Assembly (NCBI GenBank): GCA_050874685.1
Contig: JBNMLD010000003.1
Span: 1-43,981 of the forward strand
Direction of reading: 5' to 3'
Origin: Candidatus Onthoplasma sp.
GTDB lineage: Bacteria > Bacillota > Clostridia > Christensenellales > UBA1242
DNA length: 43,981 nucleotides
The translations under genes were made by a program, and so were the position numbers. This document shows positions 24,382-28,250 of this stretch, piece by piece. Each line of letters starts with the position of its first letter. Within the stretch, counting starts at the first letter, position 1. Below the pieces are notes generated by a model. It had not been told where the DNA came from, searched no databases, and saw only the letters and a program-made list of their open reading frames with translations.

Positions 24382-24588
24382 TTAGCAGCCTTGAGGGCCT
24401 TTATTGCCACAACCACAGCCACAAAGCAACAACAAAATGATTATAAGCAAGCATGGGTCAATACGGCAACCACAATTGCAGAGCAACAAAATAAGGATAA
24501 TTATCCAAGCGAAGTCGCCACATCCGCAACCGTTGTTCATGTTTTCGTTGCAACCACAATCGTTGCCACCAAAGAATTTGTTGAACAT
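24382..24588 (-). CDS. small Cys/Gly-rich hydrophobic protein (possible spore-associated protein)
   Basis: AGGAGG SD; two CGC..IIILLLLC repeats; downstream hairpin at 24325-24366. Confidence 0.75.
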   Translation of the reverse strand: MFNKFFGGNDCGCNENMNNGCGCGDFAWIIILILLLCNCGCRIDPCLLIIILLLLCGCGCGNKGPQGC

Positions 24589-25484: not shown

Positions 25485-26564
25485 CTAATAACTGAACGAT
25501 TGCAATTTCTCAACTATCATTTGCTTTAATTGCACAATATTTTTGCCAGACTTTGCCCCAATATAACATGTATCATAATGATAACGCTTTAAATTCTGCA
25601 CATCTGCATTTGTTATTTTATCTATTTTGTTGTAAACCAAAATAATGCGATTTGGGTCAATTTCAAGACGTTTAAATTCACGTTCCACAACCTCAATTTG
25701 GTCATAACAATGTGGGTCACTTGCATCAACAACCATTAAAAGGACATTCGCATCAAGTGTTTCTTCCAAGGTTGCAGAAAATGCGTACATAAGTTCATGT
25801 GGCAAATTTGAAACAAAGCCTACAGTATCAATCAAAACATATTCTGTGCCGTTATCCCAAACCTTTTTTGAAAGCACATCAAGTGTGGCAAAAAGCCTAT
25901 CATCAGCATAAGTGCCTGCCTTTGAAATAGCATTCATCAATGTCGATTTGCCTGCGTTTGTATAGCCTACCAAAGCAACACTTTTCATACGAGACAAACG
26001 TTGTTTACGTTGTGTTTGACGATTTTTTTGAATATCCTTAATTTCTTTTTCAAGCCTGATGATATCTTCTTGAATCTTGCGTTTGCTTAAATCTTTAAGT
26101 TTTTCGCCAGAGCCTTTGCCTGCTTGACGTTCTTGGTTAAGTTCAAGGCAACTCAACCTTGGCAAACTATATTTAAGTTGTGCCAGTTCAACTTGCAATT
26201 TGCCCTCGCCTGATTTTGCCCTGCCAGCAAAGATATCCAAAATCAGCATTGTGCGGTCAATGGTTTTAACATCAAAAATTTCACTTAAATTGCGCAATTG
26301 ACTGCCTGTGAGCGGGCAATCAAGGATAACAATTGTTGCACCCAAATCTTTGATTTCATCACGGATTTCTTCAGCCTTACCGATACCAAAATAAGTGCGT
26401 GCGTTTAGTTCTTTTGGTTGAAAAATATTGATTTTAACAATTTCATATAGAGCACTTTCAGTCAATTGCTCTAACTCTTTTGCCCTATGCTCCACATTTT
26501 CAACATCAACATAAGGGCACACCAAGTATGCCTTTTCTTTTATAACTTCATTATTAACAAACAT
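25485..26564 (-). CDS. hflX: ribosome-splitting GTPase HflX (possibly HflXr-like)
   Basis: DRTMLILDIFA, EGKLQVELAQLKY, GYTNAGKST, LFATLD, DTVGF, NKID; start MFVN with AAAGGAG SD. Confidence 0.92.
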   Translation of the reverse strand: MFVNNEVIKEKAYLVCPYVDVENVEHRAKELEQLTESALYEIVKINIFQPKELNARTYFGIGKAEEIRDEIKDLGATIVILDCPLTGSQLRNLSEIFDVKTIDRTMLILDIFAGRAKSGEGKLQVELAQLKYSLPRLSCLELNQERQAGKGSGEKLKDLSKRKIQEDIIRLEKEIKDIQKNRQTQRKQRLSRMKSVALVGYTNAGKSTLMNAISKAGTYADDRLFATLDVLSKKVWDNGTEYVLIDTVGFVSNLPHELMYAFSATLEETLDANVLLMVVDASDPHCYDQIEVVEREFKRLEIDPNRIILVYNKIDKITNADVQNLKRYHYDTCYIGAKSGKNIVQLKQMIVEKLQSFSY

Positions 26565-26747
26565 AAATTCTCCTTTAAACATAAAATTTAGGCACAATGC
26601 GGATAAAAAACCGCCACCGTTTATACTCCAAAAAACAATAAGTTCACAATTAAAATCTGCCTAAAATTTTAATTAGAGTTTAAAGATTTATGCTCATTTT
26701 TAACATCTCCTAAATTTTATTTTAACTTTTAAACCGCATATTGTCAA
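26562..26747 (-). promoter_or_regulatory. hflX promoter and putative translational attenuator with uORF MSINL (26680-26697)
   Basis: TTGACA-17-TAAAAT; AGGAG SD before the uORF; uORF sequence complementary to the hflX SD and AUG. Confidence 0.7.
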
Positions 26748-26892
26748 TAAATTATTATTTAGAAATGTGATTTTTGATTTTATTTATGCTGAAATTTGGC
26801 TGTTATTTCGCACATTCTCCTCGCAAAAGGCAGGCAAAAAAGCAAATACCAACAAAAAATGCACTGTTGAAAGTGCATTTTATATATAAGGT

Positions 26893-27333
26893 TTATTGTT
26901 GAACACTGTTTTCTTTGATAAATTCAACTGTTTGAATCAAAACATCTTTTGTGTCAATCATTGATTGAATCTTTGCCAAAATCATGTCTTCTTCTTCAAT
27001 TTTTCTTTTATTCAACCAGTTAAAAATCAAATGTCTCTTTTTTGTTTTTGCAACGATTGTAAGGGCATTTTTTTCAAGCAATTCATCATCTTTCAATTTT
27101 TGCATCAACTTGCCAACATGTGTAAGTTTTGCAAGCACATCGCTCCAATTTTCACTGCCCAAAGTCATATATAATTTGTAATAAATGTCGTTCATGATGC
27201 CTACACGTTGATTTTTTGATTGCATGCGTGTGATTTCATTCATTGTGTCGTAAATTTTGCCAACATATTCACAAACAACCGCTTCCCTTGTTGTCATTGC
27301 TGGTATGATTGGCATACTATAATATTTTTCCAT
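26893..27333 (-). CDS. hypothetical helical protein
   Basis: 146-aa ORF, GAGG SD, TTGACA/TGgTATAAT promoter, terminator hairpin at ~26855-26881. Confidence 0.7.
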   Translation of the reverse strand: MEKYYSMPIIPAMTTREAVVCEYVGKIYDTMNEITRMQSKNQRVGIMNDIYYKLYMTLGSENWSDVLAKLTHVGKLMQKLKDDELLEKNALTIVAKTKKRHLIFNWLNKRKIEEEDMILAKIQSMIDTKDVLIQTVEFIKENSVQQ

Positions 27334-27437: not shown

Positions 27438-28250
27438 ATGCGTATATGTAACTTGGCTAGCGGAAGCAGTGGCAACTGCACATATATTGAAGGAGATTCT
27501 GCCAGAATACTGATAGATAACGGCAAACCTTTTTCATATATTTTTAATGCGTTGAATGAACTTAACATTGCACCAGAAACCATTGATGCCATACTCATCA
27601 CTCACGAGCATAGCGACCATATTAAAGGCGTTGAAAAATTTGCACGCACTTTTAATACAAAAATTTTCGCTCACAGCAATGTTAAAGAAGTTTTGTTAAA
27701 TCAAATTCATATAGACCCAAACAATTTTGTTTTTTTTGACACTGATTTTGAAATTGGAGATTTACACATTCAACCTTTCCCATTGCCTCATGATAGCAAA
27801 TTCTGTGTTGGATATCGTGTAAATCAGGAAGATGCTGTTGTAACAGTTTGCACCGACTTGGGAGAATTTTCGGCTGAAACATTTGAAATTGTAAAATCAA
27901 GCGCATTGGTCTATCTTGAAGCAAATTATGACCCCGAAATGCTGATGTCTTATCCAGGCTATCCCCCATTTTTGAAGCGCAGAATAAGTGGTGGACATGG
28001 GCATTTAAGCAACCTTCAATGCGCAAAAGCAATTGAAAAACTTGTAAGCACTGGCACAAGGCTGGTTGTGTTAAGTCACATCAGTGAACACAGCAACACA
28101 ACAAATCTTGCAGTGGGAACAATCGCAAACTATTTGCAAAGCAAAAACATTGTTCCAAATCGTGATGTCCGCCTAGACATTGCTCACCACGAACAACGTG
28201 GAACTATATTTAGAATCACACCTACAAGTCAAAAAAATAATATAGATTAG
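27438..28250 (+). CDS. MBL-fold metallo-hydrolase, YycJ/WalJ/VicX family
   Basis: LASGSSGN, THEHSDH, PHD, TDLG, LEANYD, GHLSN, LSHISE. Confidence 0.88.
   Translation: MRICNLASGSSGNCTYIEGDSARILIDNGKPFSYIFNALNELNIAPETIDAILITHEHSDHIKGVEKFARTFNTKIFAHSNVKEVLLNQIHIDPNNFVFFDTDFEIGDLHIQPFPLPHDSKFCVGYRVNQEDAVVTVCTDLGEFSAETFEIVKSSALVYLEANYDPEMLMSYPGYPPFLKRRISGGHGHLSNLQCAKAIEKLVSTGTRLVVLSHISEHSNTTNLAVGTIANYLQSKNIVPNRDVRLDIAHHEQRGTIFRITPTSQKNNID

Follow-up and report, generated by a model that had tools for sequence, protein, structure and literature searches.

A candidate translational switch in the hflX leader of Candidatus Onthoplasma, formed by a five-codon upstream open reading frame and the hflX start region

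How is hflX, the gene of a ribosome-splitting GTPase, controlled in a genome where it has a single copy and is preceded by a very short open reading frame (ORF)? This question is raised by the hflX locus of Candidatus Onthoplasma sp., which lies on the minus strand of a stretch of 43,981 nucleotides (nt) (assembly GCA_050874685.1, contig JBNMLD010000003.1, positions 1-43,981), called the window below. HflX acts by splitting ribosomes that have stalled or are hibernating; in Listeria and mycobacteria it adds to resistance against macrolides and lincosamides. The known control of hflX by an upstream ORF (uORF) is transcriptional and concerns a dedicated paralogue in Bacilli. In the window, a five-codon uORF can pair along its whole length with the start region of hflX. 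On the strength of folding predictions we consider it fairly probable that the leader is a translational switch operated by ribosome occupancy of the uORF. What would be new is the translational version, since uORF control of hflX as such has already been published. An earlier note, made from the sequence alone, had proposed that a ribosome on the uORF frees the hflX start in the manner of erm leaders. Comparative analysis and constrained folding speak for this proposal, but no covariation is seen in the two arms of the main helix.

The hflX leader has a length of 150 nt. Its candidate promoter P1 (26747-26719, minus strand, as are all leader coordinates below) consists of the -35 box TTGACA (26747-26742), a 17-nt spacer and the -10 box TAAAAT (26724-26719), with a match at 11 of 12 positions. 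The RNA would begin a few bases before AGGAG (26711-26707), a candidate Shine-Dalgarno (SD) box situated 9 nt before the uORF start codon, predicted to be unpaired and replaced by GAGGTG or GGAGGTG in relatives. The uORF, ATG AGC ATA AAT CTT TAA (26697-26680), has five codons, or 18 nt with the stop, and encodes MSINL. About 115 nt separate it from the SD region of hflX, AAAGGAGA (26576-26569), with GGAG at 26573-26570. The hflX gene itself (26564-25485, minus strand; ATG at 26564-26562) encodes 359 amino acids with the Pfam domains GTP-bdg_N, GTP-bdg_M and MMR_HSR1 and no C-terminal domain; its product matches TIGR03156 over the full length with 360.2 bits against a cut-off of 216.75. The promoter, AGGAG, the MSINL uORF and the hflX start are all located where the earlier note had placed them.

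The fold was analysed in the window and its closest relatives. This clade comprises nine leaders, namely the window, seven relatives with a nucleotide-identical uORF (eight of nine leaders in all) and one relative with the uORF MSIKL; the HflX proteins are 87-100% identical. The minimum free energy (MFE) fold of 166 nt of the window has -33.2 kcal/mol and contains a helix between the uORF and the hflX start site, a nested stem and a GCGG/CCGC hairpin. In the first of these, helix P1, the 5' arm AAUGAGCAUAAAUCUUUAAAC (26698-26678) spans the whole uORF and is found both in the MFE fold and in the RNAalifold consensus. The 3' arm (26580-26556) consists of GUUUAAAG (26580-26573) and AUUUAUGUUUGUU (26568-26556), separated by the bulge GAGA (26572-26569), and includes part of the hflX SD box and the start codon. 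The helix thus has 21 base pairs (bp) in the MFE fold, 26698-26678 with 26580-26573 and 26568-26556, and is longer than initially proposed. In the consensus its 21 pairs are kept in eight to nine of nine leaders, none of them covarying. The proposed burial of both the SD box and the start codon stands in part: the helix buries the AUG together with the A-rich bases that precede the SD box, but the GGAG core is largely open. In the free leader the unpaired probability is 0.0 for the hflX AUG and 0.1 for G26573, and it is 0.5-0.9 for the other three bases of GGAG.

The nested stem is formed by AAAAUUUUAGGCA (26670-26658) and the 3' arm UGCCUAAAUUUU (26594-26583). It is present in the MFE fold, but only its 8-bp core UUUAGGCA:UGCCUAAA is conserved. 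The core pairs occur in nine of nine sequences and never vary; the outer pairs are unpaired in four to five of the nine. The inner hairpin GCGG-N8-CCGC (26614-26599) also belongs to the MFE fold, as had been suggested, and its stem of 3-4 bp is kept in all nine leaders with varied loops. An additional local hairpin immediately after the uORF (26674-26648; AAUUAAAAUUU, loop UAGGC, AGAUUUUAAUU) competes with the nested stem, and three of its eleven pairs are changed on both sides yet kept in the nine leaders (RNAalifold). It appears in the window fold when this is constrained by a ribosome on the uORF. We take the nested stem to belong to the closed leader and the local hairpin to the open one.

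Conservation was assessed in 64 species genomes of the genus. An hflX orthologue is present in 62, all of which were read upstream of the gene; so were two metagenome contigs, the only loci found by a metagenome scan with the HflX protein as query. Of the 22 positions of the uORF block ATGAGCATAAATCTTTAAACTC, 21 are the same in all nine leaders. The neutral yardstick was taken from the hflX genes of these nine sequences, in which 5 of 28 third codon positions (codons 5-32) are invariant. Also invariant are UUUUAGGCAG, GAGUAUAA, GGUGGC, UGCCUAAA and GUUUAAAGGAG. Variation is found in the SD region of the uORF, in the spacing and in the central part of the leader, where there are large insertions and deletions, insertions reaching about 80 nt. 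The uORF and both arms of helix P1 are invariant while other parts of the leader diverge. The uORF block is found in seven of the 64 genomes, with one copy in each and every time just before hflX; in an eighth species the contig ends 86 nt upstream of hflX, and a contig of the same species from a metagenome has the block.

Strain variants were collected from contigs of four DNA runs of livestock gut, which probably sample the same population as the relatives above and are not independent of them. The eleven variable leader positions all fall within 26601-26656 or 26712-26716, and 26562-26600 and 26657-26711, that is, the uORF, its SD box, the first hairpin arm and the start region, are free of variants. 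In the inner hairpin there is a compensatory change at 26612/26601, from G-C to A-U, seen in the four DNA runs and in the metagenome contig of the same species. A variant at 26656 retains a pair of the local hairpin as G-U.

The complementarity between the uORF and the hflX start region was compared with that of unrelated segments. The pre-specified duplex of the uORF 24-mer with the start region has -16.5 kcal/mol, and it is matched by 2 of 5000 genomic 24-mers of the same G+C content (mean -6.0, standard deviation 2.2 kcal/mol against the hflX start region) and by 2 of 5000 shuffled sequences.

The effect of a ribosome was modelled in 32 leaders by comparing the unconstrained fold with one in which 30 nt were masked to represent the footprint of a ribosome whose P site holds the uORF AUG. 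The unpaired probability averaged over hflX positions -14 to +3 served as readout, and a rise of at least 0.15 was taken as a response. The mask opens the hflX start region in 16 of 32 leaders, namely 7/9 in the clade of the window and 9/23 elsewhere. In the window itself, the predicted value rises from 0.24 to 0.53-0.56, in line with the expectation that the start region opens once the uORF is kept unpaired; in the fold with the footprint on the uORF the unpaired probability becomes 0.8-1.0 for A and G of the hflX AUG and 0.4-0.5 for U. Rises in other leaders are, for example, from 0.29 to 0.69, from 0.17 to 0.50 and from 0.20 to 0.46. The mask was also moved along ten leaders picked among the responders, a set that informs positional specificity and not frequency. 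Opening occurs only at the uORF and directly over the anti-SD element. Outside the clade of the window it is observed only for masks starting at 0-5 nt and is gone 10 nt further on; within the clade, the uORF being so short, masks starting at 0-25 nt all open the helix. The sister leaders are thus predicted to respond only to a ribosome at the start codon or at the next one or two codons.

The sister clades have a more complex arrangement. In a group of 13 leaders with nine-codon uORFs three elements can be distinguished: UGUGAG near the SD box and start codon of the uORF, the 3' end of the uORF, AAUCUCACAAUGUAA, and a third element 48-81 nt before hflX. The uORF 3' end can pair with the UGUGAG element, and one leader has the compensatory pair UGUGAA:UUCACA. 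Alternatively, in 12 of the 13 leaders it is complementary to the third element, and both change in step (CACAAUGUAA:UUACAUUGUG, CACAAUUUAA:UAAAUUGUG, CGCAA:UUGCG, CACAAAAUAA:UUAUUUUGUG, CACAAGAUAA:UUAUUUGUG). The thirteenth leader has complementarity between the uORF 3' end and the SD box of hflX itself. The nine-codon leaders have a separate anti-SD element at about -85 to -55. The clade of the window is simpler, as there the uORF itself is the partner of the hflX start region. Covariation in homologous leaders, named in the earlier note as a check on its structure, is seen in the local hairpin, in the inner hairpin and in the pairings of the sister clades, but not in helix P1 or in the nested stem.

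In the whole genus, a uORF of 5-20 codons with its own SD box precedes an SD-led hflX in 36 of 62 cases, the species with the cut contig being counted by its metagenome twin. Most of these leaders have the order TTGACA-17-TAAAAT, 7-12 nt, GGAGGTG, uORF. By comparison, the genome of the window contains 188 promoter-like sites (at least 11 of 12 matches), and an SD box, an ATG and an ORF of at most 25 codons follow only five of them; one of the five is hflX, at least one is a false call, the real gene starting earlier, and one precedes rpoB. At the latter site (about 21904-21780, minus strand), TTGACA-17-TAAAAT is followed by a possible ten-codon uORF (MPIYTMYKGL) about 50 nt before the RpoB-like gene, which may be due to chance.

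The uORF peptides fall into several families. Some of them recognisably resemble MSINL. The families comprise MSNLINLTM, MSSLDNLTM, MSNLDNLTM, MSNLKNLTM, MSKLNNLTM, MSKACFLTM, MSKVNFLTI, MSKLKFFTR, MSNVHYLAM and MDNLLNLTK; MSIECDFLF; MSIAR and MIVAR; MDK(D/S)CKHCSK and MDKCKMRLN (the latter in locus L061; handles of this form denote loci of the sample); MNNYHFAYSIDR, MSNYRFAYSIC and MVIKNISYSMCL; MVKEEKILDF; and MDRF(S/N)F, MDRLIVG, MDILRILK and MSKYTY. The genus relatives are not independent, and these tallies are counts rather than a statistical test. In L013, L019, L023 and L062, which belong to one subclade, a conserved gene of about 55 codons, starting with M(R/N)L.. and ending with ..ISMFH, lies between the promoter and the hflX uORF. 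The L019 row of the masking and anti-SD analyses refers to a 24-codon frame, probably the start of a small-protein gene, and is to be disregarded; the uORF nearer to hflX in this locus is MDRFSF.

The remaining loci of the genus are of two kinds. In 14 of 62, hflX has no SD box and a -10 box ends 5-8 nt before the ATG, the promoter having at least 10 of 12 matches in 11 of the 14. These hflX messages are probably leaderless (L012, L014, L015, L016, L028, L029, L030, L046, L052, L054, L058, L059, L060, L068). In the other 12 of 62 an SD box is present but no uORF, and the gene is either operonic or preceded by a short leader. When the loci are ordered by HflX identity the three states are intermingled, and the leaderless form alternates with the uORF form among close relatives. 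Outside the genus, 40 hflX loci of the same family were inspected; there the gene is mostly leaderless, as in many of L079-L118, or closely follows another gene. The uORF device appears to be largely confined to the genus, because only one of the 40 loci, L110, has a promoter, an SD box (GAGGTGG) and a uORF, the three-codon MII, about 50 nt before hflX. The MII uORF resembles the uORFs of three to four codons in ABCF leaders. No hflX match to the window query at E of at most 1e-40 was found in 35 of 121 sampled genomes of the family, several of them more than 95% complete; parts of this lineage of reduced genomes may be able to do without hflX.

The predictions for the window and its relatives suggest the following mechanism. 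With no ribosome on the leader, the uORF region 26698-26678 would pair with 26580-26556, burying the hflX AUG as well as the A-rich bases that precede the SD box, and the helix UUUAGGCA:UGCCUAAA together with the small GCGG/CCGC hairpin would keep the arms of helix P1 close to each other. The SD box of the uORF would remain single-stranded, so that a ribosome can load. On a uORF of 18 nt, one ribosome at any position would cover the whole 5' arm. The downstream RNA would then refold into the local hairpin 26674-26648, and the A/U-rich segment UGCCUAAAUUUUAUGUUUAAAGGAGAAUUUAUG, extending from UGCC to the AUG, would be single-stranded and available for initiation of hflX translation. Rapid normal passage would open the helix briefly; an arrested ribosome would hold it open, leading to a higher level of HflX. 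The trigger would be arrest at or just after initiation, caused by drugs of the peptidyl-transferase centre or of the exit tunnel (lincosamide, pleuromutilin, streptogramin A, phenicol or macrolide type). While the sequence elements, their conservation, their restriction to hflX and the predicted folds are results of the analysis, we infer transcription from promoter P1, translation of the uORF, control of hflX translation by ribosome occupancy, and this trigger.

Antibiotics as the main signal are a tentative part of the scheme, to which we give rather less than even weight, and are suggested by analogy with the rli80 leader of hflXr and with ABCF leaders. Start-proximal arrest by drugs is favoured because short ABCF uORFs are considered to be stalled in much this way, because the sister leaders are predicted to open in a start-proximal manner, and because the sequence occurs in livestock gut: the DNA runs containing the sequence are from pig, sheep and bovine gut. 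As to the mode of control, it is probably translational rather than exerted by a terminator. The scan of the minus strand found no terminator-like site in 26720-26562, and the only G+C-rich hairpin of the leader, that at 26614-26599, has four pairs and no U tract after it. Translational control is the better fit for this reason, as had been claimed at the outset.

A number of observations weigh against this mechanism. The fold of the whole leader is not exceptional (z = -1.99, with 6 of 200 shuffled sequences as good), and the best duplex of the hflX start region with the upstream 175 nt ranks 72nd among the 430 SD-led genes of the genome. Since the rank is of this order, the strength of pairing is by itself ordinary and is no evidence. 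The structure of the earlier note is 94.6% paired over the nine sequences, but there are no double-sided changes in its helices (0 of 27 pairs), and helix P1 shows no covariation because its two arms never vary. For the same reason, pairing and peptide are inseparable as causes: the conservation may reflect either or both, and start regions are conserved for other reasons as well. The hflX SD core is predicted to be mostly unpaired even in the closed leader of the window. In the masking predictions 16 of 32 leaders show little change or a fall, nine being open already (0.53-0.75) and L061 showing a fall of 0.32. The uORF peptide MSINL has no recognisable arrest motif such as RLR.

The identity of the gene points in the same direction. 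It is the only hflX of the genome, there being one TIGR03156 match over the cut-off and a runner-up with 54 bits (genome of 0.92 Mb, 93.75% complete), and it looks housekeeping-like, since it is closer to the HflX of mycobacteria (222 bits in phmmer) and E. coli (217 bits) than to Listeria HflXr (187 bits). Control by a uORF is dispensable, because 14 of 62 relatives are of the leaderless type and 12 of 62 have no uORF. Finally, the device could be constitutive, because ordinary translation of a five-codon uORF would open the helix as well.

This last point leads to the main rival, a constitutive coupling or stabilising role. The uORF would be translated and sense nothing specific; it would serve as a stabiliser of the 5' end of the message, or as a coupling device that sets a fixed low rate of hflX translation or tracks the initiation capacity of the cell. 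We regard this as unlikely, although several features agree with it. SD elements close to the 5' end act as messenger RNA stabilisers in Firmicutes, and the SD box of the uORF lies right at the predicted 5' end. Any ribosome on so short a uORF opens the helix, as the masks at 0-25 nt indicate. MSINL has no recognised arrest motif, and the gene is the sole hflX rather than an added resistance paralogue. However, a stabiliser or enhancer does not need a uORF complementary to the hflX start site. Nor does it need covarying pairings between the uORF and downstream elements, or the separate anti-SD elements of the sister clades, where moreover the predicted opening requires a ribosome held at the start codon and not one that is passing.

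Another explanation concerns the conserved block GAGUAUAAACGGUGGCGG (26628-26611), which is invariant or nearly so in the nine leaders and lies outside the uORF model. It contains the -10-like hexamer TATAAA (26625-26620), and a second promoter at this site would produce a short transcript with no uORF and with freely translated hflX, so that the uORF transcript would be one input among others. The hexamer is TATAAT in four, TATAAA in four and TATAAC in one of the nine relatives, its flanks are invariant or near-consensus, and a strain variant at 26620 changes TATAAA to TATAAT. On the other hand, the -35 box is not conserved (1-4 of 6 matches), and TG stands two bases before the hexamer rather than one. 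The same block can also be read as an RNA pairing: its 5' end, lengthened by the upstream UUG, can pair with ACUCUAA just past the uORF. This helix, ACUC(U/A)AA:UU(G/U)GAGU, was read by eye, the MAFFT columns being misaligned, and shows one lineage switch from U-G to A-U, so that it remains a lead. The internal promoter, which we consider quite unlikely, is compatible with the proposed switch and not exclusive of it.

A structured RNA that acts with no translation of the uORF, whether by binding a protein or a metabolite or as a thermometer, is improbable. In this case the frame from ATG to TAA would be incidental to the arm of the helix. Indeed, the uORF is conserved at the nucleotide level, with no synonymous change, and its single substitution alters an amino acid (MSIKL); the uORF model assigns no role to the conserved block 26628-26611; and HflX is reported to be heat-related in other bacteria. 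Yet an SD box at the proper spacing and a start codon are kept in the 36 of 62 leaders despite their differing uORF families. A thermometer was considered and rejected, the predicted unpaired probability of the AUG being 0.00 at 30, 37, 40, 42, 45 and 50 C. An Rfam scan of 26300-27000 with E up to 10 gave only sub-threshold chance matches, of which the best reached 26 bits, the gathering score being 51.

Transcription attenuation of the rli80 kind known from Listeria, in which a stalled ribosome blocks a leader terminator, is very improbable in the window. It has been published for hflXr and suggested for uORFC-6-1, but the absence of a terminator-like site between 26720 and 26562 and the four-pair hairpin with no U tract argue against it, and in the MSINL clade the helices extend as far as the start codon instead of stopping before it. 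Two loci distant in the genus are of a different type: L032 (2554-2671, minus strand) and L078 have the five-codon uORFs MIVAR and MSIAR, and between the uORF and hflX there is a GC-rich hairpin with a T run after it. These leaders may represent a transcription-attenuation version of the same control.

Chance, that is, a random short ORF and self-complementarity in an AT-rich intergenic region of a genome with 33.5% G+C, with the modest z score and duplex rank given above, is scarcely credible in view of the 21 of 22 invariant positions against 5 of 28 at neutral-like sites, a block exclusive to hflX, the uORFs before 36 of 62 hflX genes of the genus against 5 of 188 background sites, and the covarying sister leaders.

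The proposed switch may now be compared with known systems. In the translational attenuators of erm, cat and cmlA genes a leader ORF precedes a buried ribosome-binding site, and the helix is opened by a drug-arrested ribosome with no terminator involved. The leader of the window has the SD-led leader ORF of this class, presumably on a common transcript, and the sequestration and release of the start are predicted by folding. Its layout is closer to cat and cmlA than to the four-segment ermC, as it has two segments, the leader ORF forming one arm and the ribosome-binding site the other. In contrast to these systems, the controlled gene encodes a ribosome-splitting GTPase instead of a methylase or an acetyltransferase, the arms are separated by about 100 nt that contain nested helices, and the leader has five codons and no known arrest motif.

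Very short uORFs are also found upstream of the ARE-ABCF genes. Described examples are MIN of vmlR, MR[I/M] of cplR, MK[L/Q] of vmlR2 and MAGN of lsaA (Obana et al. 2022, bioRxiv 10.1101/2022.12.05.519065), in agreement with the assignment of MIN to vmlR in the earlier note. According to the same preprint, uORFs of three to four codons are thought to be stalled by post-initiation drugs with little dependence on context, and translational attenuation alone suffices for the off state of cplR (10.1101/2022.12.05.519065). The similarities are a tiny uORF right past the promoter, a sequestered SD box of the main gene, and arrest expected at or just after initiation. The differences are that those genes encode ABCF target-protection proteins, with uORFs of three to four codons and an intrinsic terminator, whereas the window has hflX, a uORF of five codons and no terminator seen, and that in the window the uORF itself is the anti-start element. 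The device would thus work like the ARE-ABCF leaders but is not a member of that class.

The closest precedents by gene are two leaders of hflX homologues. The rli80 leader of hflXr (lmo0762) in Listeria monocytogenes encodes a 14-amino-acid RLR peptide and contains a terminator and an antiterminator, and hflXr is an extra paralogue beside the housekeeping hflX, as described in the text on this locus (Duval et al. 2018, PMC6310831). The two leaders share a uORF directly before an hflX homologue, activation of the gene by a ribosome on the uORF, and a feedback logic in which stalled ribosomes call for a ribosome-splitting factor. Unlike rli80, the window has a five-codon uORF with neither RLR nor arginine, no terminator-like site, a uORF that pairs with the start site, and a sole hflX. 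The motif uORFC-6-1 has 51 representatives, mostly in Bacillales, with RLR and mainly before hflX (Brewer et al. 2021, PMC8632094). It is likewise a conserved uORF with an RNA structure before hflX and has been proposed there as a sensor of stalled ribosomes. The present leaders differ from that description in belonging to a genus of gut Clostridia, in their peptides, and in that the uORF pairs either with the start site or with an element close to an anti-SD. Three features of rli80 and uORFC-6-1 are thus absent from the window leader: the RLR peptide, the terminator/antiterminator and a second hflX of the resistance type. The leader has no match in Rfam, where the presence of the uORFC-6-1 motif is not established. 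No description of translational attenuation of hflX was found in the literature searched, with supplements (e.g. Table S3 of Duval et al. on RLR leaders) outside the search.

The neighbourhood of the gene was also inspected. A gene of 236 amino acids with a weak phosphoesterase-like match starts 9 nt past hflX. On the other side, a terminator-like hairpin with a T run (26881-26856, minus strand) lies 3' of an upstream ORF and sets the leader apart from upstream transcription. This ORF (27333-26893, minus strand; 146 amino acids) has no Pfam or NCBIfam match and is located between the hflX leader and a divergent gene of an MBL-fold hydrolase (27438-28250). It is absent from most relatives, in which the hydrolase gene is directly upstream of the hflX leader. 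Elsewhere in the window, an ORF of 68 amino acids (24382-24588, minus strand), overlapping other frames, is rich in Cys-Gly repeats and has a hydrophobic core (CGCN..., LLLCNCGC...).

A wider reading of the genus, which we regard as doubtful, is that in these gut Clostridia of small genome size the sole housekeeping HflX doubles as an inducible rescue and resistance factor, the leader being a fast-evolving sensor of initiation arrest. In all the diversified uORF families (MSINL, MS..NLTM, MDK.CKHCSK, M.NY.FAYSI., MVKEEKILDF, MDRF.F, MIVAR/MSIAR) the hflX start site would be opened only by a ribosome held at the uORF start codon or beside it. The readout would be purely translational, unlike the RLR elongation arrest and terminator of hflXr, and there would have been repeated switching to a leaderless, unregulated hflX.

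If the proposed switch is real, the sole housekeeping-type hflX of uncultured gut Clostridia would be under direct control of its translation by ribosome arrest, and a minimal sensor of five codons would suffice for such control. One gene would bear a whole family of diversified sensors within a single genus, which would provide a compact natural system for matching leader peptides to translation inhibitors. It would also flag inducible intrinsic tolerance in abundant commensals of the livestock gut.

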